The notes under the pieces were generated by a model. That model made no database searches, was not told the origin of the DNA, and was given only the letters and a program-made list of their open reading frames with translations. This document shows, piece after piece, positions 2,481 through 38,281 of a DNA stretch of 53,257 nt. The translations under genes were made by a program, and so were the position numbers. The stretch's first letter is position 1, and each line of letters begins with the position of its first letter. Source of the DNA: a virus (taxonomy: Duplodnaviria; Caudoviricetes); IMG/VR virus record IMGVR_UViG_3300030376_008154, positions 1 to 53,257 of that record. One strand, written 5' to 3'.

Positions 2481-4502
2481 ATGACAAAGATAAAACACAA
2501 TTTCAATCCAATGGCTCTCAGAGAAAAACACTCTATTGCCGGTAGGACTAATAACTATTCTTCTTTTTGGTTAAATGATGGATGGGATAATACCGGTTCT
2601 ATTTTTGATGAAGAAGAGAAGAAAAAAGGTGTGGATTTAATCGCACTGGCTTCTTATCGTAGGGCTATTAGTAATTTCGTTTCTATCGTTACCGGTGAGT
2701 CTGATATCAAAGTTACTTTCAATACTTCTGGTGATAGTTATACTGATGGTAAAAAAGTTACTATCTCATCTAAGTTAGATGATAAACTATTTGATAGTAC
2801 TGTTGGTTTGGCTTTACATGAAGGTTCTCATATTAAACTTTCAGATTTTGATTTTCTTAGAAATCTCACTTCTCATTTACCTGATGATTTACAAACACTA
2901 TATAATGATAAGGTAAAGGACGGTTCTTTCTTAGCAAACATCAAAAATTTACTCAATTATGTAGAGGATAGAAGAATTGATTATTTTGTTTTTTCTAATT
3001 CACCTGGTTATAAAGGGTATTATCATTCTATGTATGATAAATATTTTCATTCTAAAGTAATTGATAAAGCTCTTCAAACTGATGAGTACACTTCTTTGGA
3101 CTGGGATTCTTATATGTTTAGAATCATCAATCTTACAAATAAGAATTCAGATTTAGATGCACTTCCTGGTTTAAGAGAAATTTATAATACTATCTTTAGT
3201 AAGGTTAAAACTCTTTCTTCAACTAGAGAAGCTTTTTACATCTCGTGTAAGGTTATGAAAGTTATTTTGAATAACATCGTTGTTAAACCAGAGTCTTTAC
3301 AAGAAAATCAACCAACTCCAAGTGATGATGAAAAATCAACAGATGGTGAATCAATAAACACATCGTCAAATGGTGAAGGTGAAAGTACTGATTCTGAATC
3401 TATTGAAAAACCTAAACTATCGGATAATCAAAAGAAGCAACTTCAAAATGCAATCAAAAAGCAACAGAAGTTTATGGATGGTGATATTCAGAAAAAGAAA
3501 CTTACTAAGAAAGACAAAGCTGATATGGATGCAGTAGAAAATGCTGGAATGAATTATGTTGATGTTTCTGGTGTGACTAATGAGTGGACTGGAAAAAAAA
3601 CTCCAACTAAGGTTTTAATGGTTAATAATTTCAATAAGGCGTTGGCTGAATCTAATACAATTCGAATGATTACAAATCCAAGTTACAGATGGGCAGAAGA
3701 TTATAAAGAAGCCATTAATAAAGGTTTACAGATGGGTACTATCTTAGGTAGAAAACTTCAGGTACGTGGTGAATCTCGTGAGACTAAGTGGACTAGATTA
3801 GATAGTGGTCGTATCGATAAGAGATTAATTGCTGAGTTAGGTTTTGGTAATGAGAGGGTTTTCAACACCAGTTTTATTGAATCTTACTCAGATGCTTTTC
3901 TTCACATTTCAGTTGACGCTAGTGGTTCTATGGGCGGAGATAAGTGGACAAATACTCAAACTGCAGTAGTTGCGATTGCTAAAGCTTGTTCAATGATTAA
4001 CAATGTTGATTGTGTAATATCTTATAGAAGTACTCAATGTTCTTCTCAGCATTACAGAAATGGAAAACATCATCCTTTAATGTTAATTGCTTATGATTCT
4101 CGTAAAGATAAGATTTCAAAAGTAAAGAATCTATTTCATCTATTACAACCAGCAGGAACTACACCAGAAGGTTTATGTTTCGAAGCTATTATGAAAGAAA
4201 TTGAACCATCAACTACTGATAAGGATTCTTACTTCCTTAACTTTTCAGATGGGATGCCAATGTTTCAAAATGATGACATCAATTATAATTGGGATACGGC
4301 AATTAATCACACCGCTAAAATGGTTAAGGAAATTCGTAATCGTGGTGTTAAAATTCTTAGTTACTTCATCAGTAGTAGATATGACTCCAGTGATGAAAAG
4401 GGAACATTCACAAAAATGTACGGTTCGGATTCTGAGTTTATTAATGTAACTTCAGTTCTTCCTGTGGCTAAAACAATGAATAAGAAATTCTTACAGAAGT
4501 AA
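2481..4502 (+). CDS. Zincin-motif + VWA domain protein (CobT-like partner of a MoxR-type AAA ATPase)
   Basis: HEGSH and EDRRID in the N-domain, an acidic linker, and C-terminal MIDAS residues VDASGSM...GTT...FSDG. Confidence 0.85.
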   Translation: MTKIKHNFNPMALREKHSIAGRTNNYSSFWLNDGWDNTGSIFDEEEKKKGVDLIALASYRRAISNFVSIVTGESDIKVTFNTSGDSYTDGKKVTISSKLDDKLFDSTVGLALHEGSHIKLSDFDFLRNLTSHLPDDLQTLYNDKVKDGSFLANIKNLLNYVEDRRIDYFVFSNSPGYKGYYHSMYDKYFHSKVIDKALQTDEYTSLDWDSYMFRIINLTNKNSDLDALPGLREIYNTIFSKVKTLSSTREAFYISCKVMKVILNNIVVKPESLQENQPTPSDDEKSTDGESINTSSNGEGESTDSESIEKPKLSDNQKKQLQNAIKKQQKFMDGDIQKKKLTKKDKADMDAVENAGMNYVDVSGVTNEWTGKKTPTKVLMVNNFNKALAESNTIRMITNPSYRWAEDYKEAINKGLQMGTILGRKLQVRGESRETKWTRLDSGRIDKRLIAELGFGNERVFNTSFIESYSDAFLHISVDASGSMGGDKWTNTQTAVVAIAKACSMINNVDCVISYRSTQCSSQHYRNGKHHPLMLIAYDSRKDKISKVKNLFHLLQPAGTTPEGLCFEAIMKEIEPSTTDKDSYFLNFSDGMPMFQNDDINYNWDTAINHTAKMVKEIRNRGVKILSYFISSRYDSSDEKGTFTKMYGSDSEFINVTSVLPVAKTMNKKFLQK

Positions 4503-4678
4503 TGATTAAGTGGTTATTAAAAAAATGGTATAAGCATAGTCCGACCTGTAATTGTGGTTGGACTATGAAACCATTTGAAAGTTATACCGATAGATATCAA
4601 TGGGAATGTATATGGAAAAAATGTGGTTGGGGAGCATTTCAAGATGACCACGGTAGATTACACTGGTGGAAATCGTAA
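4502..4678 (+). CDS. Small Trp/Cys-rich Zn-ribbon-like protein (58 aa), below the ORF-track cutoff
   Basis: MIKWLLKKWYKHSPTCNCGW...WECIWKKCGW...; start overlaps the upstream stop (TAATG). Confidence 0.55.
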   Translation: MIKWLLKKWYKHSPTCNCGWTMKPFESYTDRYQWECIWKKCGWGAFQDDHGRLHWWKS

Positions 4679-4861
4679 ATGGGCTTTTTATTACATTCAA
4701 AAATGGTAAGAGATATGGTTGAAATTTTACTTACAGAATATATTGAAAAATGTAAAAAAAGTAATTCAAAAAATCATACAGAATTTGTTAAAGATTTATT
4801 TACATATTTGAGATATGGTGAATTATCAAAAAACTTTAAAAAAAATGAAAAAAGTACTTGA
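4679..4861 (+). CDS. Hypothetical protein
   Basis: 60-aa ORF abutting the previous gene; stop lies in promoter copy 3. Confidence 0.5.
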   Translation: MGFLLHSKMVRDMVEILLTEYIEKCKKSNSKNHTEFVKDLFTYLRYGELSKNFKKNEKST

Positions 4862-4887
4862 CTCATGTGCAATTTTATTCGTAGCTT
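4858..4887 (+). promoter_or_regulatory. Class-I promoter, copy 3
   Basis: TTGACT-catgtgcaattttattcg-TAGCTT. Confidence 0.8.
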
Positions 4888-4892
4888 AATGT

Positions 4893-6089
4893 ATGACTTT
4901 GAGAGATAAAACAAACAACTTAACAAAAGGAAAAAACAATATGTCAAACGTTGTTGTAAAAATAGAAATGTCGGGTAACCGATATAATGCATGGGATGCT
5001 GATGGTAATAAATTTACATCCCAAATTGGTAATGGTACAAGAAAAAGTGCCTTCCAAAAAGGTATGGCCCTTGAACAGAGGGTAAATAAAAATGGTAAAA
5101 CTTTCTGGTGGAAAGTTCCGATGTCAGTATTTGAATCTTCTACCGCACCAGTAATAGATACTACTGGTATTGACATTCCTACCGATCATGAAGAAGTTCT
5201 CAACTTCATTCATTCTTCTTATAATATTAAACCGCAAGGTTTGGTTATGAAGGAATTGAAGTGGAAGTACTTAGTACGTTCCGCTGTTCGTGGTAAGAAT
5301 ATCCTGATGACAGGTCCTGCAGGATGTGGAAAAACTATGGCTGCTAAGTCATTGGTTAATTCCCTTGACAGGCCAGACTTCTACTTCAACTTAGGAGCCA
5401 CTCAAGACCCCAGAGCTACTCTAATTGGTAATGTACACTTTGATAAAAAGAAAGGTACTTACTTCTCTGAGTCTCTTTTTGTAAAAGCTATTCAAACTCC
5501 AAATGCTGTGATTCTTTTAGATGAGATGAGCAGAGCACATCCTGATGCATGGAATATTCTAATGACAGTTTTGGATAGTGGTCAAAGATACCTCAGACTT
5601 GACGAGTCTGATGGACAAGATACAATCAATGTTGCGGAAGGCGTCACCTTCGTCGCTACTGCTAACATTGGTAATGAGTATACTTCTACCAGAGTTATGG
5701 ATAAGGCCCTAATGGATAGATTCATTGTTGTAGAAATGGATGTTCTCAATTCCGAAGAAGAACATGGGTTGTTGAACTATATGTTCCCACATGTTGATTC
5801 AGACTTATTGAAGTCTGTTGCTGAGATATCAAGCTTGACTCGTAATGAGTCAAAGTCTGAATCAGGTAGGTTGTCAAATGGAATATCAACCAGAACTTCT
5901 GTTGAAATCGCTGGTTTGTTATTCGATGGTTTCAGATTAGAAGAAGCAGCTGAAGTTACTGTCTATCCTCAGTTTTCTGATGATGGTGGACTTGAGTCTG
6001 AAAGAACTTATGTGAAACAGTTAGTTCAAAAGTATATCTCTGATGGCTCTTCTGATGACTTGTTTAATGAAGACGAATTAGAGTCTTAA
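4893..6089 (+). CDS. MoxR/CbbQ/CobS-type AAA+ ATPase (likely true start MSNVV at 4940)
   Basis: Walker A GPAGCGKT, Walker B ILLDE, sensor ATAN, Arg-finger ALMDRF, and ISTR; AAAGGA RBS before 4940. Confidence 0.92.
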   Translation: MTLRDKTNNLTKGKNNMSNVVVKIEMSGNRYNAWDADGNKFTSQIGNGTRKSAFQKGMALEQRVNKNGKTFWWKVPMSVFESSTAPVIDTTGIDIPTDHEEVLNFIHSSYNIKPQGLVMKELKWKYLVRSAVRGKNILMTGPAGCGKTMAAKSLVNSLDRPDFYFNLGATQDPRATLIGNVHFDKKKGTYFSESLFVKAIQTPNAVILLDEMSRAHPDAWNILMTVLDSGQRYLRLDESDGQDTINVAEGVTFVATANIGNEYTSTRVMDKALMDRFIVVEMDVLNSEEEHGLLNYMFPHVDSDLLKSVAEISSLTRNESKSESGRLSNGISTRTSVEIAGLLFDGFRLEEAAEVTVYPQFSDDGGLESERTYVKQLVQKYISDGSSDDLFNEDELES

Positions 6090-7917: not shown

Positions 7918-8415
7918 ATGAGAGAGAGACTTAAGCAATATACAGAAGTTGACATCCATAAAGTAAATTATTTTGATAACGAAGATTTATTTGAAACAAT
8001 AAAACAAAAAGCAATTACTAAAGATAAAGGTGCGTGGATGACAAGTTGGTATGAAGAATCTTTTCAGCAAATTGCTAATTACATTATGGACTATATAAAT
8101 TCTTTAGATTTTATAGGTAAGACGCCAATAGCTATTGGTCCTCAATTAGAGCATATGCATCTGTGGGGGCAAATATACAATGAGAATGATTATCAAGAAT
8201 CACACGATCACGTACCACATAATTTATCTTGGATATATTTTGTTAACACACCAAGCGGTTCTTCGTCTGTAGTATTTGAGGATTCTGATTTGGAGATACT
8301 TCCTACAAAGGGTAAGGTGTTGATATTTCCAAGCTGGGTACGACATTATGTACCACCTAATAAATGCAAGGGAAGAGCAATAATAGCAGGTAATATTAGT
8401 TATGCACGAGACTAA
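7918..8415 (+). CDS. 2OG-Fe(II) oxygenase family protein
   Basis: HDH...LSWIYFV...G.VLIFPSWVRHYV...R.IIAGN pattern. Confidence 0.85.
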   Translation: MRERLKQYTEVDIHKVNYFDNEDLFETIKQKAITKDKGAWMTSWYEESFQQIANYIMDYINSLDFIGKTPIAIGPQLEHMHLWGQIYNENDYQESHDHVPHNLSWIYFVNTPSGSSSVVFEDSDLEILPTKGKVLIFPSWVRHYVPPNKCKGRAIIAGNISYARD

Positions 8416-9687: not shown

Positions 9688-9716
9688 TCCGTTATATTTA
9701 TATTTGTATAACGGAG
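9688..9716 (+). promoter_or_regulatory. Hairpin containing an ATATTTATA motif and occluding the RBS of the holin-like gene
   Basis: TCCGTTATA (9688-9696) is the exact reverse complement of TATAACGGA (9707-9715); SD GGAG at 9713-9716. Confidence 0.65.
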
Positions 9717-9722
9717 AAATTT

Positions 9723-10043
9723 ATGCCAGATAAAAAATTATATAAGGGAAATGAGGATAAAGTTATAGACCAAAAACACTATATTAATTCTAAATTAGTA
9801 GAGATTATAGAATACAGACAATCACGAAAGTGGTATATTAGTATTGCTGTTGTCTCTTTGTTTTCTACTATATTAGCACTTATGATATTTTTTATGGCTC
9901 AAGGTAAAGATGTAACGAGTGGTTGGAAAGAAATACTATTACTAATGTTAGGTGGATTTGTTGGTTCATTCGCAAAAGTCATTGACTTTTGGTTTAACAA
10001 TCAAGAAAACGATAATAAACTTTTAGAACATGCGGACGATTGA
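9723..10043 (+). CDS. Two-TM holin-like membrane protein
   Basis: Two TM segments, the second ending LGGFVGSFAKVIDFWF; lies upstream of the endolysin. Confidence 0.55.
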   Translation: MPDKKLYKGNEDKVIDQKHYINSKLVEIIEYRQSRKWYISIAVVSLFSTILALMIFFMAQGKDVTSGWKEILLLMLGGFVGSFAKVIDFWFNNQENDNKLLEHADD

Positions 10044-10045
10044 TT

Positions 10046-10687
10046 ATGAATATAGCAACTATAGCTGGACATTTAGCCTTTGGATTAATAGCCTTTTCTT
10101 TTCTGGTCAAGGACATATTATGGTTACGGGTTGTATCTATATTAGCGAGTCTTTTCTCGGTATTTTATAATTATTTCATACCAATTGAACCCATGTGGTT
10201 GGCTATCAATTGGAATATCGTCTTTGTTCTTGTAAATCTCTATCACATAGCAGTTATCGTATATGAAAAACGACCTATTAAAATGGCACCAAAAGACAAA
10301 GAGTTATACGAAACTCTGTTTAAAGATTTAAGTCCTGTTGAATATCTAAAGATAACAAAGATAGCAGAATGGAAAAAATTTAAAGCTGGTGATACTTTAA
10401 TTAGAGAATCACATATGGTTACTGATTTAATTTTAATATACAATGGAACTGTTGATGTCAATGTAAAAGGTGAAAAAGTTGCTGAATTAAAAGATGGGCA
10501 GTTCGTAGGCGAGATGTCATTCCTTACAGAGAAATCAGCAACTGCTGATTGTGTGGTAAAGCATGATACTGAATGTATATTATGGAAACAGCCTGAGTTT
10601 AAGGATTTATTAAAAAGAAACCCATCTTTGTATTATACCATACAGGGTTTATTAAGTAATCAATTGATAAGCTACAGTAGTAAGTAA
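10046..10687 (+). CDS. Popeye-like membrane protein with C-terminal cyclic-nucleotide-binding domain
   Basis: Three TM helices (…KDILWLR…WNIVFVLVNLY) then a cNMP-binding fold (GDTLIRE, LIYNGTVDV, GQFVGEMSFLT, ATADC). Confidence 0.85.
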   Translation: MNIATIAGHLAFGLIAFSFLVKDILWLRVVSILASLFSVFYNYFIPIEPMWLAINWNIVFVLVNLYHIAVIVYEKRPIKMAPKDKELYETLFKDLSPVEYLKITKIAEWKKFKAGDTLIRESHMVTDLILIYNGTVDVNVKGEKVAELKDGQFVGEMSFLTEKSATADCVVKHDTECILWKQPEFKDLLKRNPSLYYTIQGLLSNQLISYSSK

Positions 10688-10698
10688 AGGAGAAAAAA

Positions 10699-11175
10699 AT
10701 GTTAATTAATTTTGACGAAATAATTGAAGTAGTATTACACCACGAAGGTGGATATGTAAACGATCCTGATGATCCAGGAGGAGAGACTAATTTTGGTATA
10801 GCTAAACGTAGTCATCCCGATGTAGATATTGCTAACCTAACAAAAGATGGTGCTAAAGAAATCTACAAAGAACATTATTGGGATAAAAATAAAGTAGAAT
10901 CTTTATCAGAAGATTTAAGACATATTTATTTTGATATGTGTGTAAATCAAGGTAGAGGAAGAGCAGTAAAAATTCTTCAACAAGCTGCTAATGCTAAAGG
11001 TGCTGATTTAGTCGTAGATGGTGGAATGGGTCCTAAGACTATTGCTGCTATGGACGGTGTAGAACTACAAAGAGTTAGAGCATATAGAGTAAAGTATTAT
11101 GCTGATTTAGTAACCCGAAAGCCTGACTTAGAAAAATTTTACTTTGGATGGTTTCGTAGAGCATTGGAAGTATAA
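10699..11175 (+). CDS. Endolysin, glycoside hydrolase family 108
   Basis: HEGGYVNDPDDPGGETNFGI, FDMCVNQG, VDGGMGPKT and C-terminal F..GW..R. Confidence 0.93.
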   Translation: MLINFDEIIEVVLHHEGGYVNDPDDPGGETNFGIAKRSHPDVDIANLTKDGAKEIYKEHYWDKNKVESLSEDLRHIYFDMCVNQGRGRAVKILQQAANAKGADLVVDGGMGPKTIAAMDGVELQRVRAYRVKYYADLVTRKPDLEKFYFGWFRRALEV

Positions 11176-11406
11176 ATGGCTAGGTATAGAATAATAAAAA
11201 CATTTATGACCAAACCTGAGGAGTGGGATTTTAAACATGGGACATGGCCACCAAATCCTACTGCGTGGGTTGCTCAATTAGATGATAGTGATACACTTTG
11301 GGAGTTTAGTGGAAGTAATGCATCTGCTTCTGCAGTTACTAAAAAAGACGAATTACAATCAGCTGATGTTAATCGAAAATATAAGATAGAAGAATTACCT
11401 GAATGA
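11176..11406 (+). CDS. Hypothetical protein
   Basis: 76-aa ORF abutting the endolysin stop. Confidence 0.6.
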   Translation: MARYRIIKTFMTKPEEWDFKHGTWPPNPTAWVAQLDDSDTLWEFSGSNASASAVTKKDELQSADVNRKYKIEELPE

Positions 11407-12158: not shown

Positions 12159-12635
12159 ATGACTAAAGTTACTTTTCATCGCGGATTGCCCGTAATAGAT
12201 AGAGATTCCTTTTTAACACCGTTTGATAGAATGTTTGATGAAATTGTAGGAAAATCTTTTCCTGAAATCAATCAACAAGTTGGAGTAAACCCATTCCAAG
12301 GTACAGCATATCCAAAAGTTAACGTATATGAATACGATGACAAAATTGGAGTGATTGCTGAAATACCTGGTTTGGATAAGAAGGATTTAACTGTCGAAGT
12401 TGAGGAAGGTATATTAACCGTATCTGGTGAAAAATCACATGGATTCTTTGATGAAACCAAAGCTAAAGTACTGAGACGTGAGTTGAAACATTCACAGTTC
12501 AAAAGGCAATTTACTTTGGGTGATATGTTAGATGGAGAAAGTATCTCTGCTAACTTCAAAGATGGTATCTTATCAATAGAGATTCCAAAAATTGAACCCG
12601 AACTTCCAAAGAAAAACGTTGTCAAAATTAAGTAA
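12159..12635 (+). CDS. hsp20: Small heat-shock protein (Hsp20/alpha-crystallin)
   Basis: PKVNVYE, AEIPGLDKKDL, LTVSGEK, FKRQFTL and ANFKDGILSIEIPK motifs, plus a C-terminal VKI. Confidence 0.95.
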   Translation: MTKVTFHRGLPVIDRDSFLTPFDRMFDEIVGKSFPEINQQVGVNPFQGTAYPKVNVYEYDDKIGVIAEIPGLDKKDLTVEVEEGILTVSGEKSHGFFDETKAKVLRRELKHSQFKRQFTLGDMLDGESISANFKDGILSIEIPKIEPELPKKNVVKIK

Positions 12636-12854: not shown

Positions 12855-13733
12855 ATGTTTGAACAATCTAAACAATTCAATAAGTTAGTTGGATTTTCGG
12901 CTTTATCTATTGCCGGTAGTGCAGCTTTCTTTTCAGTTTATGGTTTATCAAAGTTATTTGCAGGAGCTCAACTTGCTGTAATAATTATGGCAGGTTCATT
13001 GGAGTTTGGGAAACTAGTTGCGGCGTCGTTTTTATATAGGTACTGGAAAGTAATAAATACATTTCATAAAACCTATATGACAATAGCAACCATAATACTA
13101 ATACTGATTACCTCAGCTGGTATATTTGGTTTTCTATCTAACGCATATCAAGGTGCTACAGTATCTTTTGAGAAAGAAACTACCGCGTTACTATATAAAG
13201 AAGATAGACTAGACCAATTAAAAGAAGATAAAACATTTCTTAAAGAAGAGTTAGAAGCAGCTGTAGCTGAGTTACCTGATAATTACAGAACAGCAAAAAG
13301 AAAACTCAGAGAAGAATATCAACCAAAGATAAATAAAATTAATGAAGATATAATAAATCTCAAAAGTGAAGTTGGTGATTTAAAAGTACAGATAATTGAA
13401 ACTGGTGTTGAAGTCGGACCTGCTATTTATTTGGCGAAAGTATTTGATACTGATGTCGATACTGTAGTTAAATTCTTTATCTTTGTACTTATATTTGTTT
13501 TTGATCCAATGGCAGTAATATTTGTGATAAGTTACAATGTAACCTTATTAGATCAAAAAAATTCTCCAAAAGCTAGTTCCAATACCAACATTACCACAAA
13601 GAAAAAATGGTGGGAAGTTTATGGTGAAAAAGATAAAAAGGTAGAAGTACCGATAACTGTAAATCAAGAAACTGGAGAGGAAGAAGAACTTCCAACACCA
13701 CGTGGTGCAATAATTAGGAAAAAAAAGACTTGA
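12855..13733 (+). CDS. Multi-TM membrane protein with central coiled coil
   Basis: Three N-terminal TM segments, a coiled coil, then a TM ending FVFDP; AGGAG RBS. Confidence 0.75.
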   Translation: MFEQSKQFNKLVGFSALSIAGSAAFFSVYGLSKLFAGAQLAVIIMAGSLEFGKLVAASFLYRYWKVINTFHKTYMTIATIILILITSAGIFGFLSNAYQGATVSFEKETTALLYKEDRLDQLKEDKTFLKEELEAAVAELPDNYRTAKRKLREEYQPKINKINEDIINLKSEVGDLKVQIIETGVEVGPAIYLAKVFDTDVDTVVKFFIFVLIFVFDPMAVIFVISYNVTLLDQKNSPKASSNTNITTKKKWWEVYGEKDKKVEVPITVNQETGEEEELPTPRGAIIRKKKT

Positions 13734-13759
13734 CTTGTATTGCAATTCTTTTGTAGCTT
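13730..13759 (+). promoter_or_regulatory. Class-I promoter, copy 4
   Basis: TTGACT-tgtattgcaattcttttg-TAGCTT. Confidence 0.78.
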
Positions 13760-13785
13760 AACATATAAAGAAGAGGTAAAAAATC

Positions 13786-14304
13786 ATGATAAAAACAAAA
13801 AGTGCTATTGCGGTGATAGTAACTATTACAATAATAAATGGTTTATTTTCAACTAAGATGTTTAAGAAATACGATAATATGTATCGTTCACAAATTACTG
13901 AATTGAAAATCAGTAATGATAGATTAAAGAATACACTTTCTGAATATCAGAAGTATGGTGTGATTGTGGATGTTACAATGTATCAGCCTGACAGAATACA
14001 ATGTGATGATACACCTGATATTACCGCAGACGGTACTCGTATTAGAATACACAAAGCTTCAGAATATAAGTTTGTAGCACTATCTCGTAACCTACTTAAA
14101 AGGTGGGGTGGTCCTTTTGATTACGGTGATTTCATCTTAATTAAAGACGCAGGACACAAAGATGGTGTATATCAAGTAAGGGATACTATGAATCCAAAAT
14201 GGGTTAATGTCGTAGATATCTTAGAATCAAAAGGTGTTGAACCGTATAAGTTCACCAACGCTCACATCTTTAAATTACCATGGGTGGACACACAAAAAGG
14301 ATAA
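13786..14304 (+). CDS. Membrane-anchored 3D-domain (peptidoglycan-active) protein
   Basis: VTMY...QCDDTPDITADG...VALSR...V.DTM....VDI pattern; N-terminal TM. Confidence 0.8.
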   Translation: MIKTKSAIAVIVTITIINGLFSTKMFKKYDNMYRSQITELKISNDRLKNTLSEYQKYGVIVDVTMYQPDRIQCDDTPDITADGTRIRIHKASEYKFVALSRNLLKRWGGPFDYGDFILIKDAGHKDGVYQVRDTMNPKWVNVVDILESKGVEPYKFTNAHIFKLPWVDTQKG

Positions 14305-14740: not shown

Positions 14741-15487
14741 TTGAAATTAGAAGATTTTAAACCACAATTTTTAGAATTGAAAGATGATGTACCGTTAGCA
14801 GATAATGGTCATCATAAAAAACATAAAATTGAAAAACAAGTGAATTGGTTTCTTAAGCGTAAGGTTATTGATTGTACTAAGAATGAAAATTCCATTATCA
14901 AAAAGAAACTCAAGGAGGTTACAGTTGAAGAAGGATTGGTTATTGCAAAAGAACTATTTCAGATACTTGTCGAAAGAAAAGACGGTATTGGGTTGGCAGC
15001 TAATCAAGTGGGAATTGATGCACAAGTGGCCGTTGTCAATGTTCGTGAACCTTTGGTACTCATCAATCCGAAGATTGTATCGAAGGAAAATGAGATACCT
15101 TATTATGAGGGTTGTTTATCTTATCCAGGCAAAGGAGTACATACCAAGCGATATCAAACAGTAGAAATTACTACTGCTCAGGTAGAGGGTAGTTGGATAT
15201 TTTCTGGTGTAGACACCGGCGAACTTTCCAAAGGTAGTTGGGAAAAAGATGAATCTAAACAGGATAAACAATTGAGAACTTTGGAAGCCGTATGTATTCA
15301 GCATGAGATAGATCACTTAAATGGTAAGGTAATTATGGACAGAAAAGTGGAAACGACTATCAAAAGAGTTGAGAAAAAGATTGGTCGTAATCATTTAGTT
15401 ACAATCAAAAAAGGTGATGCAGTTAAAGTATTGAAATACAAAAAAGCAGAAAAGTTTTTAAATGATGGGTGGTCTATTAAAGAATGA
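14741..15487 (+). CDS. def: Peptide deformylase (start uncertain)
   Basis: All three PDF motifs: GIGLAANQVG, EGCLS and QHEIDHLNG. Confidence 0.95.
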   Translation: MKLEDFKPQFLELKDDVPLADNGHHKKHKIEKQVNWFLKRKVIDCTKNENSIIKKKLKEVTVEEGLVIAKELFQILVERKDGIGLAANQVGIDAQVAVVNVREPLVLINPKIVSKENEIPYYEGCLSYPGKGVHTKRYQTVEITTAQVEGSWIFSGVDTGELSKGSWEKDESKQDKQLRTLEAVCIQHEIDHLNGKVIMDRKVETTIKRVEKKIGRNHLVTIKKGDAVKVLKYKKAEKFLNDGWSIKE

Positions 15488-17129: not shown

Positions 17130-17548
17130 GGGGCTGAACTTGGTATCGATTATTATAATCAGTTTAACGAGTGCAGCAGAGATTGAGTCAATATCTCGCG
17201 ACAAAAGACTCACTACTCTTAATTGGCGAAGTATCGCTAGACGGGTTGAACATTGATTGGCATTTGGCCGAGTATGATTACTCACCAGCACCAATCGGTG
17301 ATTATCAACCATCTTACTCATACGCTGCGTAAGATACTGAGTTGTCTAACACTCGGTCATAAAATAAGTTAGACGAACTCTCTTTAGCTAGGATGAAGTT
17401 AGAGATTAAAGAAACTGCCAGTTGGTCACTCTGTGGAAAGTGATGGGTGTGTTGTAGGTGCAGTCTCCGAGGGTTAGAACCTAACTAAGCTGTGAATGAC
17501 TTAGTAAATAGATATAGTAAGACGGGGGTTCGAATCCCCCCAGCTCCA
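17130..17548 (+). ncRNA. ssrA: tmRNA
   Basis: GGGGCTG/CAGCTCCA acceptor with G3-U70; T-arm GGGGG-TTCGAAT-CCCCC; pseudoknot 1 (GAGAT/ATCTC, TGAGTC/GACTCA); internal tag frame 17225..17332 ending YSYAA-TAA. Confidence 0.95.
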
Positions 17549-17565
17549 CAAAATTAGGATAAAGT

Positions 17566-18659: not shown

Positions 18660-18732
18660 GGGGCTGTAGCTCAGTTGGGAGAGCGCTTCACTTGCACTGA
18701 AGAGGTCGCAGGTTCGATTCCTGTCAGCTCCA
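18660..18732 (+). tRNA. tRNA-Ala(UGC)
   Basis: Cloverleaf with GGGGCTG/CAGCTCC acceptor (G3-U70), anticodon arm CTTCA-CTTGCAC-TGAAG and TTCGATT T-loop; CCA not encoded. Confidence 0.95.
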
Positions 18733-18739
18733 CTTAAAT

Positions 18740-18810
18740 GTGGTGGTAGTCAAATGGTTAGGCAACGGATTGCAAACCCGTGTATGTGAGTTCGATTCTC
18801 ACCCACCACT
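18740..18810 (+). tRNA. tRNA-Cys(GCA)
   Basis: GTGGTGG/CCACCAC acceptor, U73, anticodon loop TTGCAAA and T-arm GTGAG-TTCGATT-CTCAC. Confidence 0.9.
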
Positions 18811-18835
18811 CAAAAACTTTTAATGAGGTTATAAA

Positions 18836-19039
18836 ATGAAAATTAAAGTAGAAAAGAAACTATTAAACGGTGAAATAATAAAAACAGAAGAACTGTTTTT
18901 TAATATACCAAAGGCAATTTCTGATGAACTGAACTGGGAAGATGGTACACTAGTTGAATGGGAAGTTGTAGGTTTTATGGAAAATGATAAAGAGGCTAGA
19001 ATAGTTCTTAAAAATATAGATGATAAAATCTTAGATTAG
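18836..19039 (+). CDS. AbrB/MazE/SpoVT-like DNA-binding protein
   Basis: FFNIPKAISDELNWEDGTLVEW pattern; GAGG RBS. Confidence 0.7.
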   Translation: MKIKVEKKLLNGEIIKTEELFFNIPKAISDELNWEDGTLVEWEVVGFMENDKEARIVLKNIDDKILD

Positions 19040-19042
19040 GTA

Positions 19043-19083
19043 AAAATAAATTTGTATTTGAGAAAATATATAGATATATATTA
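19043..19083 (+). promoter_or_regulatory. Class-II promoter-like element, copy 1
   Basis: AAAATAAATTTGTATTTGAGA-N10-ATATATATTA, repeated at 41500. Confidence 0.65.
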
Positions 19084-19091
19084 TTGTACAT

Positions 19092-19163
19092 GCGGTGGAA
19101 GTCTTAAAGGTAAGACATTTCGATTCCATCGAAAAGGTGTAGGTTCGATTCCTACCCACCGCT
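19092..19163 (+). tRNA. tRNA-Gly(UCC), atypical
   Basis: GCGGTGG/CCACCGC acceptor with U73 (Gly identity), anticodon arm TTTCG-ATTCCAT-CGAAA and T-arm GTAGG-TTCGATT-CCTAC. Confidence 0.85.
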
Positions 19164-19213
19164 CAAAACTTTTGGCCAGTAAGGCTACTTAACAATTGAT
19201 AATTAACTAAAAT

Positions 19214-31208: not shown

Positions 31209-31517
31209 ATGCCATATACACAAGAAGAGCTTCAAAAAAATGAATACTATCAGAATCTAATCAATGAAGATGAACAGAGATACGAACAGCAAAGGGCACT
31301 ATATCAAACCGCATTTCTTGATAGCGGTGGTGAGAATGATGGGAGTCTTTTAGTAAGGGATAAGGATAACACAATACTACTATTTGAGAATCCATATACA
31401 GGTGAGTTATATGAAGATGAAACCACATCTTATGTAAAAACAGTTGAAGTAGAACAATTCAAAATAAATGAAGATATATTAGATGAAGTTATTAACAGAA
31501 ACATAACGGAATTATAA
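31209..31517 (+). CDS. Acidic hypothetical protein
   Basis: Coupled to both neighbours. Confidence 0.7.
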   Translation: MPYTQEELQKNEYYQNLINEDEQRYEQQRALYQTAFLDSGGENDGSLLVRDKDNTILLFENPYTGELYEDETTSYVKTVEVEQFKINEDILDEVINRNITEL

Positions 31518-34500
31518 TGGCAAGTAACTTAAAACAAAGTGATAAGGATTTATTATCTGCTGGTAATAAAATAAGAATCGGTAACAAGCCATATGAAAAT
31601 GGTATATTCGGTAGTAGAGAAAGTCGTGATTTTATATTTTTCCAGCTTACAGATATAAATGGAAATGTAATAGAATATAGAAACATTCCTTATAGCCAAA
31701 TAAACTTGCAGGAAAATGGAAATTTATTACTACAGCCCCCACAACAATTCAAAGACTCTGAAATTACCTCTGGTACATATAATGTTACATATAGATTTTT
31801 CAGAAGATTAGCTGGTGATGATACGACAATTCTAATTCGAACAGTTCCTAATGCAGAAGATGGTAAATTTATGATATGGGAGGATTATGAAAATATAGAA
31901 ATTACAGATGAAGGGTTGGTTTATGAAAAACTAAATGTTAACGGTGATTTTTTTGAAAGAGGTCAAGAGTTACAGGTAAAGAATTTAAAATATCAAATTG
32001 ACGAGATATCACCTTCAAGAACTGAAGTTAGGTTAAGAGCTCAAAATTTTGATGGATTAAACTATAAGGAAGATTTTTTCAGATTAGGCGAACAATTAAG
32101 AAAGTCTATTTCTATGCCAGGTTCAGTAATAGAATTTGTGGCAGATGATGGTGATTTAAATGATACGAATACCATACAAATTAACCCGATGATTGATGAC
32201 TTCGTATTCACACCACGAATGATTGATGGAACCGTACAGATAAATGATGTGTTTTTAGTTGATGAAATTTTAATAACACCTAAAAGCGATGACATCGCAA
32301 AAAATGGCGGTGGAGAGCTTACAGTCATAAGTGATTTAGGCGATGTAAAGAAATTAGGCGATGAATTTCAATGGGATACAAATCTTCACAGTAAAGCAAT
32401 ACAAGTTCAAGATTGGAGTAACGGTTTTTTAGGTTACCTTAATAAACCAACTTCCATATGGGGTGCTACAATAGGCTTAGGATACTTTGCACATTGGGTG
32501 CAAGGTGAAGGTAAGGGCGGTGGAATATGTATGAAATTTCCAGATATTAACCAAACCTTCGAGCAAACCATAGAAGATTGGCCAGCAGGAAATCCGCATC
32601 GACCATTATTAATACAACAACAATACTTTGATAGCTTGGAGGCATTCAATGTAAGTCACGGTGATAATATATTAGTAACCTTTGATGTAAAAAGTACAGT
32701 TATAAATAAACCATTAAGGGTAACTGCGAGATATCCTAATGAACCATTAACCGAACCTAAGCCAACCAATCCACCTAATGGTTTCTATGATCCAGATGCA
32801 CCAGATATTGATGAAGAAGTACCATCTATACCTGATGGTTTTATCGGACCAGGAGACCTTTCGGGTGTGGAACCTGAACCGCCTAGTAATCTCAATGGTA
32901 TAGTTGAATATTTTGATTTGGATGTTCAACAAGCAAATGCAATATCCATAGGTATTAACGGACCTTTACATATAGGTATGACAACAGCCGATACAATTTT
33001 CGGAGGAGTTGGTTTTTGGAAAGTTGAAGCTGTTGAAGGCTCAGGTAGTAGCTTATCAGTTTCGTGGATTGTCAATTCAGATTATTCAGGTTTTAATTTA
33101 TTTAATGGTTTAGTAAGTCCGGAAGGACAGTGGGTTTGGGATGGTGTAGCTATTTCTTGGTCTCCTAATACCGGTGGTGGGTGGTCATTACCTGAAGCCA
33201 CACCTGGTACGGTTAATTCGAGCGAATTTCCTAATGCAGTTAATAAAAGTATTTACCAACAAGAAAATGTGGGAGTTCCTGTTTTTGAAAGAACCACCCA
33301 AATTGGACAAAATGCTGGTTGGGTTACCGGTTTTGTAGGTGGAGGCGGTTCAAGTGCACGAGCAATATTAGTAAAGGATGATTTACTTTGGGAGGTAACT
33401 CCAAGTGCGGGTACTGATAGTGGGGTAAGGCATTACACATTTACTGAATTTTTTCTTACATCAACATATTCTTCTGGTATGACATCATATGGTTCGATTA
33501 AGCTTAATATCAATGAAGAAGGTGATGGTGTAGTAGATGTTAACGGTAAAACTTTGGATTATCTCATATTTGCCAACGGTGGTTTCATTCAGTCTATAAC
33601 TAGGGATAGAAAGTTAACTCAACCAGAAGATACACCATCGGGCTATGTAATTTGTTATAATGATGGTTTAGGTACGAATAAATCTAATAAGATTGCAAAC
33701 TTATATAGAGATACGGATTTTACATATAAAATAGAAATAAAAGCTATAGAAAATCTTTCTGGTGGAGAAGTATTGAACAACTCCATGCAGAATCTCGGTA
33801 ATCGTTGTGAAGTAACACTTAGAACCAGGCCTGATAAATCCTATCGATTTGATTTTTTCTTCTTAGTTGGAAGTAAGGTGTTTGTACGAAAAACTTCTAC
33901 ATCGAAACATTTTTTAAATCCAGCTAACTCTGTACAATCTGCAGAATTTAAATTTTTTGAATCACCTGACAACATTTCTGAAAATGACGAATTTAACCTT
34001 TGGCTGACAGAAGGTGAACCTCAGGTTTGTTTTGAAATGTATGGTATACCAGTCGGTAATGAGGATGATGATGAGCAACTTCATTACTGGTCAAAATTTC
34101 ATCATATAAAGTTTAACGAACAGCAGCTTGTAAAGAAAACTGGAACAGATGAAATTTCACCAGGTCTTTTAGTAGCTAATAGAATAGAAACAAATTTTAA
34201 TATCAATGATATATTTTTAGGTGCGGGTATTGTACAACGTACAGGTCCTGATGGTGGACAACCATTGGAGTTTGGAGTTCTGAACCCTTCTGCGATAAAC
34301 TTTAATCCGAATGCAGTTTACTCAGATAGCACAGTTCAACCAGAATTTGATTACAGTGCAGATCCTCGAAGAATTGGTACATTATCACCTGAAGAATTTT
34401 GGAGGTGGAGCGGTACTGTAGATTCCGGTTGGGAATATCAAGGTGTAATACCTATTGCATTCTCATCTACAAGACCAGCAGAACCGCCTATAAGAACTAC

Positions 34501-37500
34501 TAAATCTAATGAATGGGAAAGTTTTACGGTTTCAATTCCAGTAAGAGAAGATTGGATATTAAATGCTACCAGTGCGTGGTCTTTGAATTTTGAAGGACAT
34601 GATTTTACTGATACCAATACATTCGGTATAAGTTGGATTGATAATGTAGAGGTTAAATTTGAATTTACACAGCAATCAACCACAAAACAGATACTTAAAC
34701 CTTACGTCGCACAAATAAAAACTGTAAGTGATAATGGCTTGATAATTACCACAAACAAAACCTTTCAGGAAGCAGCAATAGAACTTAGTGATGATGATAA
34801 TCCTGTAGAAGCAGTTTATGATGGTACAAATAATGAGGGAGTGTATCTATCCTATCAAACTGAATATCTAATTTTTAATCCGCGAGAATTAAGAACTTAT
34901 ATAAAGTTAGAAAATAGTTTTTTCCTCACAACCAACTTCAGACAAGATAGACAATCAATTATAGAATATCCACATGGATTGGTATTCAAATTATATCAAC
35001 CATTACCTGAGAGTGTAAAGAGATTTGATGAAATAACTGTTGTAAAAGAGATGGTAGAACCTGCTGTAGAAAGAATGAGGGTTATTGATTTTATTCCAGA
35101 AGAAACTGGTGACAGAGTATTAAAGAGTCCTGATTTGGGTAATTTGGATAGCGGTATAGTTAGAAGAACCACTCAATTTAAATCAGAATCAGAAATATTA
35201 ACTGCTGATACGAATATATCAGAAAAATTGAAAAGTCAATTTATATCACAAAGCTTTGACAGTGCAGATATAAATGTCGATTATACTCAATACAAAAATT
35301 TTACAAATTTTGGTTCTGTAGAGAAAAGGTTAGAGAATTTTAAATATAAATTAGAACTCATTGAATCATATAATACTCAAAGCGGTTCTCTTGAAAGTAT
35401 TAGTGGCTCATTAAAAGATATGAGAAAATGGGAAGGATTAATCAAAGAGGTTAAGAATAATTTTGATGGTTTTGAAAGTTTTATGTATTTCGAAAGCTCT
35501 TCTTATATCTCTAGTTCGTTGGGGGTATTTCACGATAATGCTTGGCCTAAATCAAGTGGTACTGGTACGGTAAGAAGTCCTTATGTTTTAGCACACACCA
35601 CATCTTCACAAGCAAAAAATTGGTATAATAACTCATTAAAATCCGCATCACTCTATGATGAAGAAAATTTAAATAAATTAAGCTCCTTATTACCCGAGCA
35701 TGTTAGAGTTGATACTAACAATGACCTTTACTTAAAGTTTACGGATATGTTAGGACACCACTTTGATGAAATTTGGTTATATATAAAAGCTATGGGGGAT
35801 GTGTTTGATAGAAGAGAAAGTCTAGATCAAGGTATCTCAAAAGATTTATTATATGAGGTTGGAAAGTCATTGGGTTGGACTCTTAGTGATGGAACTGATT
35901 TAGTATCTTTACCAAGATATGCAACGGGTGCAGAAGTAACAGGTTCCAGCTACTCTGATTACTCAGCTATAGCAGAAAAAGATATGTCTCGTGAAATATG
36001 GAGTCGTATTATAAATAATATGCCATTCTTTTTAAAGCATAAAGGAACTGTTAAAGCATTAAAGGGTTTGATAAATGTATATGGAATACCATCAACTATT
36101 CTCAGAGTAAAGGAGTATGGTGGTCCTAATGTACCAAACAGCGATACCCCACAATTTGAAATAAGTCGTAAGTTTACTAAAGCGTTAGATTTTAGAGGTG
36201 GACAATTTGTAAAAACACCTTGGACTGGAAGTCTCACTGGTACGGAAAGAAAGCCCGATACTATAGAATTTAGATTTAAGGCAACAACAGGATCAAATCA
36301 AATATTAGTAGAAAAGAAATCTGCAAATCCATCTTCGAGCTTTTACATCAGATTAAAGGATAATAACTCTGTTGATAATAAAGGACATGTAAGTTTTCAA
36401 TTAAGTGGTTCTGATGGATTGAAAGAAATTTCATCATCCATGTTACCTATTTATGATGGTGATTTCTATTCTGTAATGTTAAGAAGAACTTCAGGTTCTG
36501 ATGCATCTAATATATCACAATCATTTGAATTATCAGTTGGTAAATACGATGCTAGTAGAAGTAAGATACAATATTTTTCAGCAGTAACAATGTCAACTGA
36601 TATAGCTGCTTCGTCATCTTTTAATAAAACTTATGCAGATGATGGAAATATATTTATTGGTGGTAATACTGATTTATCAAATGTGGGTTTAAGGCTTAGC
36701 GGCTCAGTTATGGAATATAGACATTGGACTGAAACTCTTGGTGTAAAACATTTTAAAAATCATATATCTAACCCAAAAGCTTATGAGGGTAATCACCAAA
36801 CCTCTTCTTATCAAAATTTAGTTTTAAGATATTCTTTTAACGATGATAAAAATTTAGCAACTGATACGGTAGGTATTAGAGATGTAAGTTCCACAGCAAC
36901 ACCAACTACATCTGGTTCTCATAATGGTTTTACAGGTAATTTTTATTCCAATGTAGTTGACGAAACAAAAACTCACATACCAAGTATCGGTGCGTTAAGA
37001 AGAGTAACAAATAAAGTTCGTATAGAAAGTAATTCCATCAAAGAAGGTGAGGTATTACAGTATAAAAAGAGAGCGACAAAAAGTGCTTATGACAGTGCAC
37101 CCAACGATTCTAACAAAGTAGGAATATTCTTTGCACCAACCGATGTGATTAATAATGATATAATTAATTCTGTTGGAGATTTGAACTTTGATAATTTCTT
37201 AGGTGATCCAAGAGATACAAAAGAATTAAGCTACAGAGGACTAAAACTTACATCAGATTCATATTGGAAAAAATATAATTCTCCAAACAGCTTTTGGGAT
37301 TATATTAGATTGTTGAAGTTTTATGACCAATCTTTATTTCCTCAACTTAAAAAAATGATTCCTGCTAGGGCAAAATCAAACGTTGGTGTACTTGTTGAAC
37401 CAAATATATTTGAAAGACCTAAAGTAGTTATGGGTAAGAATCCAACATTTGAGGATTTATCATTTACATCATCTATAAATCTAACTGATAGTGTAATATC

Positions 37501-38281
37501 GGTAACTTCTTCATATAATGCAGGAGTTACTGTTTCTTCATTTAATTCATATATTGGTGAAATTCCAATAAATAGTTATGAAACTGGTTCAATGAGTTTT
37601 AATTTTACAGGAAGTTACGATACCTTTGAAGGAACTTTAAGTGATTTTAAAAACAATAACTTTGATTTAAGTATTTGGCAACAATTTGGTAGTGGTTCTT
37701 ATGTATCTGCTTCTATAAAATCAGGTGATGACAAGCCCAAAGAGGTATTTCAACCTATAATAAGTGGTTCACGTGTTTATGGTAGAAATCAAAAAATAAA
37801 GAAAATTTACAGTTCTATATCAAATCAATTAGCAGGTATTGCTAATTCATCATCCTTTGAAAATATTGATATAGATAATCTAGCAGATGAATCATTAGCA
37901 AAATTCAATTCATATTATGCGGGTGTGAAAAATACGGAAGATTCAACTGTAGATGGCGGTTCACCAATTGAAATTGTAATAACTTCTCCAACTAAACTAG
38001 TTACTCAGAAAGGTGGTGATTCTACTTTAAAAACTGGTGATGGATTGGTACCTGATTTTAAACAAGTAGGTTCTAAAGAAAAGGGAGGAGAAAAACTTCA
38101 ATCTAAAGCAACCGGAGAGGATAGTACACAACCTATACAAATGACGCCACTTGAAGCAAAGAATTACTTTGAAAAGGGTATAGTTCCAGACAATCTAAAG
38201 AATGATAAATCTAATAAAGGTATTAAAGGTTCGAAAGATAAAGGTCAGGGAAAAGGCAATGGAAAGAGTTATAATAAATAA
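31517..38281 (+). CDS. Very large baseplate/tail structural protein (2254 aa) with carbohydrate-binding-like and LamG-like regions
   Basis: EISPSRTEVRL; LKHKGTVKALKGLINVYG tail-I-like segment; TIEFRFK...IFIGG...LSGSVMEYRHW LamG-like segment. Confidence 0.75.
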   Translation: MASNLKQSDKDLLSAGNKIRIGNKPYENGIFGSRESRDFIFFQLTDINGNVIEYRNIPYSQINLQENGNLLLQPPQQFKDSEITSGTYNVTYRFFRRLAGDDTTILIRTVPNAEDGKFMIWEDYENIEITDEGLVYEKLNVNGDFFERGQELQVKNLKYQIDEISPSRTEVRLRAQNFDGLNYKEDFFRLGEQLRKSISMPGSVIEFVADDGDLNDTNTIQINPMIDDFVFTPRMIDGTVQINDVFLVDEILITPKSDDIAKNGGGELTVISDLGDVKKLGDEFQWDTNLHSKAIQVQDWSNGFLGYLNKPTSIWGATIGLGYFAHWVQGEGKGGGICMKFPDINQTFEQTIEDWPAGNPHRPLLIQQQYFDSLEAFNVSHGDNILVTFDVKSTVINKPLRVTARYPNEPLTEPKPTNPPNGFYDPDAPDIDEEVPSIPDGFIGPGDLSGVEPEPPSNLNGIVEYFDLDVQQANAISIGINGPLHIGMTTADTIFGGVGFWKVEAVEGSGSSLSVSWIVNSDYSGFNLFNGLVSPEGQWVWDGVAISWSPNTGGGWSLPEATPGTVNSSEFPNAVNKSIYQQENVGVPVFERTTQIGQNAGWVTGFVGGGGSSARAILVKDDLLWEVTPSAGTDSGVRHYTFTEFFLTSTYSSGMTSYGSIKLNINEEGDGVVDVNGKTLDYLIFANGGFIQSITRDRKLTQPEDTPSGYVICYNDGLGTNKSNKIANLYRDTDFTYKIEIKAIENLSGGEVLNNSMQNLGNRCEVTLRTRPDKSYRFDFFFLVGSKVFVRKTSTSKHFLNPANSVQSAEFKFFESPDNISENDEFNLWLTEGEPQVCFEMYGIPVGNEDDDEQLHYWSKFHHIKFNEQQLVKKTGTDEISPGLLVANRIETNFNINDIFLGAGIVQRTGPDGGQPLEFGVLNPSAINFNPNAVYSDSTVQPEFDYSADPRRIGTLSPEEFWRWSGTVDSGWEYQGVIPIAFSSTRPAEPPIRTTKSNEWESFTVSIPVREDWILNATSAWSLNFEGHDFTDTNTFGISWIDNVEVKFEFTQQSTTKQILKPYVAQIKTVSDNGLIITTNKTFQEAAIELSDDDNPVEAVYDGTNNEGVYLSYQTEYLIFNPRELRTYIKLENSFFLTTNFRQDRQSIIEYPHGLVFKLYQPLPESVKRFDEITVVKEMVEPAVERMRVIDFIPEETGDRVLKSPDLGNLDSGIVRRTTQFKSESEILTADTNISEKLKSQFISQSFDSADINVDYTQYKNFTNFGSVEKRLENFKYKLELIESYNTQSGSLESISGSLKDMRKWEGLIKEVKNNFDGFESFMYFESSSYISSSLGVFHDNAWPKSSGTGTVRSPYVLAHTTSSQAKNWYNNSLKSASLYDEENLNKLSSLLPEHVRVDTNNDLYLKFTDMLGHHFDEIWLYIKAMGDVFDRRESLDQGISKDLLYEVGKSLGWTLSDGTDLVSLPRYATGAEVTGSSYSDYSAIAEKDMSREIWSRIINNMPFFLKHKGTVKALKGLINVYGIPSTILRVKEYGGPNVPNSDTPQFEISRKFTKALDFRGGQFVKTPWTGSLTGTERKPDTIEFRFKATTGSNQILVEKKSANPSSSFYIRLKDNNSVDNKGHVSFQLSGSDGLKEISSSMLPIYDGDFYSVMLRRTSGSDASNISQSFELSVGKYDASRSKIQYFSAVTMSTDIAASSSFNKTYADDGNIFIGGNTDLSNVGLRLSGSVMEYRHWTETLGVKHFKNHISNPKAYEGNHQTSSYQNLVLRYSFNDDKNLATDTVGIRDVSSTATPTTSGSHNGFTGNFYSNVVDETKTHIPSIGALRRVTNKVRIESNSIKEGEVLQYKKRATKSAYDSAPNDSNKVGIFFAPTDVINNDIINSVGDLNFDNFLGDPRDTKELSYRGLKLTSDSYWKKYNSPNSFWDYIRLLKFYDQSLFPQLKKMIPARAKSNVGVLVEPNIFERPKVVMGKNPTFEDLSFTSSINLTDSVISVTSSYNAGVTVSSFNSYIGEIPINSYETGSMSFNFTGSYDTFEGTLSDFKNNNFDLSIWQQFGSGSYVSASIKSGDDKPKEVFQPIISGSRVYGRNQKIKKIYSSISNQLAGIANSSSFENIDIDNLADESLAKFNSYYAGVKNTEDSTVDGGSPIEIVITSPTKLVTQKGGDSTLKTGDGLVPDFKQVGSKEKGGEKLQSKATGEDSTQPIQMTPLEAKNYFEKGIVPDNLKNDKSNKGIKGSKDKGQGKGNGKSYNK

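Follow-up and report, generated by a model that had tools for sequence, protein, structure and literature searches.

Introduction

The timing of lysis sets phage fitness, and its controls include holin dose, antiholins and superinfection sensing. Antiholins and other lysis regulators, such as T4 RI and RIII, lambda S107 and P1 LydB, are membrane or cytoplasmic proteins that are encoded with holins and adjust the time of lysis when a signal arrives; for T4, the abstracts of published work agree with this description. To our knowledge, none of these regulators possesses a small-molecule-binding domain, and the term "second messenger" was absent from the papers listed for holin/antiholin lysis timing. 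Here, we describe a gene, termed POP, in a 53,257-nt stretch of viral DNA (IMG/VR record IMGVR_UViG_3300030376_008154; the whole stretch is called the window below). It encodes a Popeye-like membrane protein, lies between a small holin-like gene (c14) and a gene for a GH108 endolysin, and has no sequence relation to the regulators listed above. We tentatively propose that POP is a ligand-sensing regulator or partner of the holin step in the inner membrane, its lysis role, partner and ligand all being putative.

A similar architecture is known from the animal proteins POPDC1-3, in which three N-terminal membrane helices are followed by a cytoplasmic domain resembling cyclic nucleotide-binding (CNB) domains. 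POP passes the corresponding Pfam cut-off, and the binding cassettes of both lack the canonical Arg. According to the available passages of a POPDC review, the animal proteins bind cAMP through a different cassette, containing DSPE and FQVT, and modulate a membrane partner, TREK-1 (PMC5872366). However, neither motif is present in POP, whose cassette reads GEMSFLTEKSATAD, and the C-terminal half of POP scores as an ordinary PF00027 domain and is not followed by a long C-terminal tail. In addition, POP is a bacterial and phage protein, whereas, according to the same passages, POPDC arose at the base of the animals (PMC5872366).

Like POP, the Pycsar effectors PycTM and PycTIR couple a CNB domain to a membrane or killing module; unlike them, POP is phage-borne and encoded beside an endolysin. 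The domain order of known Pycsar effectors is opposite to that of POP. PycTM disrupts the membrane upon binding cyclic pyrimidines, as described in the accessible part of the source (PMC11224242). In PADLOC, POP matched no PycTM model at E-values up to 1; its only hits were to models of PycTIR, TIR effector and PycC, each of them confined to the CNB part. The Trypanosoma PKA regulatory subunit, another CNB-fold protein, binds nucleosides. Its cassette Arg is replaced, and the titles of entries 6flo and 6h4g describe it as cAMP-independent and name a T318R mutant. Being a soluble kinase regulator, it differs from POP and serves solely as an example of a changed ligand where the Arg has been lost.

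The first-pass annotation of the window, made from the sequence alone, knew of no lysis module of this form. We likewise found no description of a Popeye-type phage gene or of a sensor-bearing lysis module in the full-text literature, a search that did not extend to subscription journals and supplements.

The c14-POP-GH108-c79 cassette

The cassette and its upstream region comprise the following features:

9690..9715, + strand: intergenic motif TATTTATA (9695-9702) inside an 8-bp inverted repeat, CCGTTATA/TATAACGG (from the sequence)
9723..10043, + strand: c14, 106 aa, two membrane segments (open reading frame (ORF) call, hydropathy)
10046..10687, + strand: POP, 213-aa Popeye-like protein with three membrane helices (10052-10270) and a cytoplasmic CNB-fold domain (10289-10678) (Pfam, AlphaFold, fold search)
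10496..10552, + strand: POP binding cassette GQFVGEMSFLTEKSATADC, Gly-Glu kept, Ala165 at the place of the canonical Arg (alignments)
10699..11175, + strand: GH108 endolysin, 158 aa, with a PG_binding_3 domain and without a signal sequence (Pfam, PHROGs)
11176..11406, + strand: c79, 76-aa soluble protein (ORF call, hydropathy)

ORF calling reproduced the gene order given in the first-pass annotation, with gaps of 2, 11 and 0 nt between successive genes, and the four genes constitute a tightly packed, probably late unit. A TTG at 10040 is also possible as the start of POP, but all homologs begin with MN or MD at the ATG of 10046. The endolysin assignment was borne out by matches to PF05838 (92.3 bits, 2.8e-26), PF09374 (43.2 bits) and the endolysin family phrog_315 (2e-49). 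The protein c79 has no membrane segment and is regarded as a partner of the holin slot described below, not as a spanin.

The motif TATTTATA has 13 copies on the + strand of the window, of which eight are intergenic and lie shortly 5′ of + strand genes, including baseplate genes and c14. Counted on both strands, the 8-mer has 21 matches versus 12.4 ± 3.7 expected. The presence of the same motif before baseplate genes and before position 9723 is in favor of a lysis role for the cassette. The inverted repeat at 9690-9715 is kept in two other loci (L003 and L004) with one change that would still permit G-U pairing. The region is probably a late promoter with a hairpin or operator touching the GGAG ribosome site of c14. 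The late and regulated nature of the "regulated late motif" originally annotated here is conjectural.

Three marine runs among RNA libraries (two studies) contain short contigs 85-97% similar to POP, GH108 and the c14 end, two of which bridge c14 to POP. We do not take them as proof of expression because DNA carry-over is possible.

Genomic neighborhoods of POP

Neighborhoods of POP were compared in the best 80 of 100 viral stretches coding for a relative, 79 of which have a callable POP ORF. Four unrelated lysis-type genes recur as its direct neighbors: a membrane-anchored SLT transglycosylase (34/79 loci), c14 (10/79), a phrog_3427 holin with a weak GTA_holin_3TM match (8/79) and GH108 (4/79). 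One or more of these adjoin POP in 52 of the 79 loci, and a muralytic gene (SLT or GH108) does so in 38. Other neighbors include a periplasmic thioredoxin-like protein (21/79) and pilin genes (3/79). Many of the loci are near-copies; once these are collapsed, about 14 distinct arrangements remain, and a lysis-type gene adjoins POP in roughly half of them.

POP is closely coupled to the gene preceding it: in 68 of 76 loci, no more than 8 nt separate its start from the stop codon of that gene. In loci that pair POP with SLT or the holin, a stretch of about 160-200 nt lies 3′ of POP. Pairs of c14 and POP, with stop and start overlapping or 2 nt apart, occur amid at least six different flanks, and the order c14-(c242)-POP-GH108 is found in seven records, the window among them, whose POP proteins are 69-92% identical. 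To this extent the gene order is conserved in relatives; in other lineages SLT or the holin stands beside POP, and linkage to lysis genes is not universal.

The gene c242 is a 71-aa soluble ORF located directly 5′ of POP with overlapping stops (L063:1667-1882, L124:983-1198 and L126:1622-1837). It seems to travel with POP, since the gene before it is SLT in one lineage and c14 in two more.

Comparison of the window with the locus L001, whose POP is 95% identical, revealed nucleotide similarity from the ATG to 8 nt before the stop, with unalignable flanks, and the POP arrangements do not track the POP tree. Together, these observations indicate that POP is mobile as an ORF-sized unit.

c14 and the slot of the phrog_3427 holin

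The protein c14 contains two hydrophobic segments (residues 37-59 and 70-91), and both of its ends are predicted to be cytoplasmic. Its tail is acidic (NNQENDNKLLEHADD), and the family shows an invariant K.IDFWF motif and the tail KLLEHADD. It thus combines the holin-type traits of small size, membrane segments, a charged C-terminus and a gene located beside an endolysin or holin. No holin-family match was obtained in Pfam, PHROGs or NCBIfam; the only family matches were phrog_9990 and phrog_1544, both of unknown function, with TraS below the cut-off. An Atlas search returned only viral hypothetical clusters, with leads scoring at most 0.8, and hhalign against the phrog_3427-type holin gave a probability of 0.1, i.e. 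no sequence kinship. We consider c14 a candidate holin-type partner protein by context. The holin-like label given earlier to this gene accords with its two membrane segments, its charged tail and a neighboring holin in 31 of 77 loci.

These 77 loci have a callable c14 and derive from the best 80 of 229 viral stretches. The phrog_3427 holin adjoins c14 in the 31 loci just mentioned and lies at most two genes away in 35. POP is within two genes of c14 in 21 loci, and POP and the holin are both present in nine. GH108 is found within three genes of c14 in only five loci, all five of which contain POP, and in none of the 35 holin-bearing loci. The gene c79 lies within three genes of c14 in 12 loci, ten of which also contain the holin. 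The order c14-holin-c79, frequent elsewhere, has the same bracket as c14-POP-GH108-c79 of the window. The phrog_3427 holin was not found in the window, a 53-kb fragment, nor in four records with POP directly beside a muralytic gene, which are 51, 55, 68 and 79% complete; one record with POP at a different place does contain it.

Fold and binding cassette of POP

The membrane part of POP matches PF04831 (POPDC1-3; 5e-14, 53.1 bits, cut-off 28.1) and its C-terminal part PF00027 (cNMP_binding; 2e-14, 53.8 bits, cut-off 27.5). An AlphaFold model built from a 90-sequence alignment has a predicted local distance difference test score (pLDDT) of 93.8 and a predicted TM-score (pTM) of 0.81. It contains helices at residues 3-20, 24-44 and 51-75, followed by two short helices, a beta-roll and two C-terminal helices; hydropathy agrees on three transmembrane segments. 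We infer an N-out, C-in topology because a K/R-rich stretch follows helix 3. Residues 77-213 resemble solved CNB domains (Foldseek E-value 1.8e-10; VIA Z 18.7, root-mean-square deviation 2.1 over 131 residues to 3mdp), with further fold matches to HCN, SthK, PKA, CRP, PycTIR and ligand-free KCNH homology domains. The first-pass description of a Popeye-like protein with three membrane segments and a cNMP-binding domain is thereby confirmed by both family matches, the model and the fold search.

The membrane part alone (pLDDT 89.5) retrieved generic three-helix bundles, the best being the first three helices of complex I subunit J (Z 10.2); this gives no usable lead, because the value is under the caution level of the tool for helical bundles. 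A resemblance to SemiSWEET, considered for its Trp/Asn pair, found no support.

The cassette keeps its Gly-Glu and has Ala in place of the canonical Arg, as had been read from the sequence at the outset. In ungapped HMMER alignments of POP to Plasmodium PKG domains, Ala165 faces the Arg, and the corresponding column of the 90-member family alignment contains Ala in 66 members, Thr in 17 and Arg in none. G155 is present in 88 and E156 in 84 of the 90 members. The most frequent family residue before Ala165 is Pro (37/90), as in canonical cassettes, where Pro usually precedes the Arg. An alternative register with Lys163 at the place of the Arg was rejected, as it requires a 2-residue deletion and Pro precedes Ala165 in those 37 members. 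Because Arg is absent from the whole column, its loss is a trait of the entire family and not a local one. Since this residue clamps the phosphate, the ligand of POP would not be bound canonically; canonical cyclic-phosphate binding is doubtful, although cAMP is possible as a ligand.

Phage lineage and the POP family

The window is a 53-kb fragment with about 32% G+C and a CheckV completeness of 28%, and every gene examined in it lies on the + strand. The phage carrying POP belongs to a lineage of large marine T4-like myoviruses. By the gp6-like baseplate protein, the closest relatives in culture are Mel-JY01, a Microcystis phage (48.6%), and the Flavobacterium "immuto" phages (39.6%); tblastn searches with POP and c14 gave no match among cultured phages in INPHARED.

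A word-based search yielded 2025 POP homologs, the best 120 of which are at least 86% identical and come from marine metagenomes. Exhaustive search among 50%-identity representatives gave 5638 homologs at E ≤ 0.001 and 131 at E ≤ 1e-30. The representatives are mostly 210-235 aa long and match over their full length. The POPDC cut-off is also passed by 10 of 11 longer homologs, in which no informative fusion was seen, and by all seven ORFs from genome contigs. Full-length members occur in metagenome-assembled genomes (MAGs) labelled Acidobacteriota, Bacteriovoracaceae, Chloroflexia, Polyangiaceae, Pirellulaceae and Cloacimonadota; in the sources, these members bear only the names "hypothetical" or "cyclic nucleotide-binding". 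In the phylum of the MAG labelled Polyangiaceae (G007), just 4 of 201 sampled genomes contain a member.

In a quick maximum-likelihood tree of 104 rows, all 19 phage rows form one clade (SH-aLRT 99), and the nearest rows include a cluster named Bdellovibrio MAGs by its sources. In our reading, POP, a member of a bacterial family, was captured once by this lineage of large marine T4-like myoviruses. The phage copies are under strong purifying selection (dN/dS 0.034-0.16 in seven of eight comparisons; the eighth has a saturated dS) and keep the family-invariant membrane residues D23, R28, W56 and N64.

A 72-kb contig filed under a Pelagibacter MAG (L082, NHHP01000001.1) encodes a 428-aa protein, a 200-aa protein, a thioredoxin-like protein and POP in the order seen in phages, and its genes all share the same strand. 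The contig probably stems from a phage and was mis-binned.

Possible roles of POP

We regard a role in the holin step as the best single explanation, though a tentative one, because four unrelated lysis-type partners recur, start and stop codons are coupled, and the c14...c79 slot is shared. POP, the second gene of c14-POP-GH108-c79, occupies the slot that in many relatives belongs to the phrog_3427 holin, and its product would act in the inner membrane. There, the cytoplasmic CNB domain would sense a small molecule present in the infected cell, and the ensuing conformational change, transmitted via helix 3, would alter the contacts of POP with c14 or with a holin, shifting the moment at which the endolysin reaches the wall.

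Several observations weigh against this explanation. All viral records used are fragments. In the record holding L001 and L150, with a POP 95% identical to that of the window, c14 and the holin lie about 58 kb from POP; elsewhere, SLT is about 32 kb away (G003), GH108 about 100 kb (G004), or SLT 19 kb and GH108 50 kb (G005). As G005 has SLT and GH108 together, SLT is not necessarily the endolysin. The mobility of POP as an ORF-sized unit means that its neighborhoods may reflect a plastic region rich in envelope genes, and in 21 loci POP ends a module of envelope-type genes. Bacterial homologs adjoin unrelated cellular genes with no common theme. Finally, no cyclase family was found among the ORFs of the window, and PF00211 occurs in none of five large related records. 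Together with the doubtful cyclic-nucleotide binding of a cassette without Arg, this weakens the link between lysis and host cAMP suggested in the first-pass annotation.

A somewhat unlikely alternative is that POP is an accessory (moron-type) gene unrelated to lysis which does the same job as its bacterial homologs. It might, for example, regulate a transporter or channel in the host membrane, much as animal POPDC regulates TREK-1, and its neighbors would merely reflect insertion into a plastic region. Taken together with the envelope role considered next, this alternative is nearly as probable as the holin-step reading. This would fit the ORF-exact mobility, the roughly 14 different contexts, the distance from lysis genes in several records and the bacterial homologs standing alone in cellular settings, and the four invariant membrane residues kept in the phage copies suggest an unchanged biochemical role. 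It does not readily explain why four unrelated lysis-type genes are direct neighbors in two thirds of the loci (52/79), why POP overlaps or nearly abuts its neighbors, or why it uses the same c14...c79 slot.

The module ended by POP (L001:121-2866 and 20 other loci) encodes a 430-aa protein resembling an outer membrane protein (OMP), a lipoprotein, an MshE-type membrane protein and a periplasmic thioredoxin-like protein. The membrane protein combines an MshE-type c-di-GMP-binding N-domain (MshEN) with a periplasmic coiled coil. The module may be a spanin-like or envelope system with its own second messenger sensor. Three genes whose products show the N-terminal methylation motif of type IV pilins (PF07963, 30-35 bits) are located at 146-1546 of the window and also at L001:3625-5125; pilin genes follow POP directly, or a few genes later, in L001, L002, L007 and L015. 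It is conceivable, though quite unlikely, that POP belongs to a second-messenger-steered envelope or pilus module made up of these components and acting, for example, in surface remodelling or superinfection exclusion. The position of the OMP-like, lipoprotein, MshEN and thioredoxin-like genes directly 5′ of POP in 21 of 79 loci, the score of the MshEN model (NF053729, 46.8 bits versus a cut-off of 38) and the pilin genes, after POP in three loci and present in the window, are consistent with this. However, the module is not present in the 53 kb of the window, POP occurs without it in the arrangements "A" (with SLT) and "C", and the module, being flanked by c14, POP and the holin, may be lysis-related too.

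It is very doubtful that POP itself forms the hole. It would then be a ligand-gated holin or pinholin that took over the place of the phrog_3427 holin between c14 and c79, with a logic like that of PycTM-type effectors: the sensor domain would open or nucleate the three-helix part when a host metabolite or nucleotide changes. The three helices in N-out/C-in orientation resemble class I holins, and POP occupies the slot of a holin that was not found in any of the four records where POP abuts a muralytic gene; in the SLT arrangement "A", only POP and SLT among the neighbors have hydrophobic segments. Nevertheless, close homologs sharing the invariant residues are widespread in cellular genomes and can hardly be lethal, all records are incomplete, c14 could be the holin, and POP lacks a PycTM match. 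Least probable by far is a sponge or decoy that would counter Pycsar- or CBASS-type defense by capturing its cyclic nucleotides. The CNB part does match PADLOC PycTIR models (6e-14) and the PycTIR chains 8jsk_A (by sequence) and 8jsk_B (by fold), but this is generic CNB similarity. Known sponges are soluble, while POP is membrane-embedded, has a conserved membrane domain common to cellular homologs and has a cassette without Arg. The earlier suggestion that POP sequesters immune signals thus gained no pointer from our analysis.

Other features of the window

The window also codes for baseplate genes, a late-sigma-like gene, a primase, an SbcC-like gene, a tmRNA and three tRNAs. The tmRNA (tag GDYQPSYSYAA), preceded immediately 5′ by a TATTTATA motif, and the tRNA-Ala, tRNA-Cys and tRNA-Gly genes are located at 17130-17549 and 18660-19164. 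An ORF at 19214-20371 matches the Druantia protein DruA (PF14236, 86.4 bits). Auxiliary genes at 2481-6089, 7918-8415, 12159-12635 and 14741-15487 encode a CobT-like protein, a MoxR/CbbQ-type AAA ATPase, a 2-oxoglutarate-Fe(II) oxygenase, Hsp20 and peptide deformylase. Two giant ORFs, at 31517-38281 (2254 aa) and 46520-53257 (2246 aa, open at the window end), matched no Pfam or PHROG family.

Comparison of window positions 12855-14304 with the locus L103 revealed a difference 3′ of the o292 homolog: G005 has an SLT gene there, and the window instead a gene for a 172-aa protein of phrog_21574 (unknown function) whose N-terminus includes a membrane segment. One membrane-anchored wall enzyme may have been exchanged for another at this site.

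Implications for lysis timing and the Popeye family

The Popeye architecture occurs widely among bacteria and phages, with at least 131 clusters at 50% identity (E ≤ 1e-30), while the POPDC review, in its available passages, puts its origin in animals (PMC5872366). A small bacterial or phage homolog could serve as a tractable model for a three-helix membrane domain coupled to a CNB domain.

The phage group bearing POP is very abundant in marine metagenomes, and its gene order, with a membrane protein of nucleotide-sensor fold between a holin-like gene and an endolysin, hints that in some phages lysis is timed by an intracellular chemical signal. If POP were a ligand-gated holin, chemical conditions in the infected cell, and not holin accumulation alone, would set the moment of lysis, and the phage would be using the logic by which PycTM-type defense effectors cause abortive infection. 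If, as we tentatively propose, POP acts on the holin step, a holin partner with a small-molecule sensor would constitute a new input to lysis timing, namely the metabolic or signaling state of the host.

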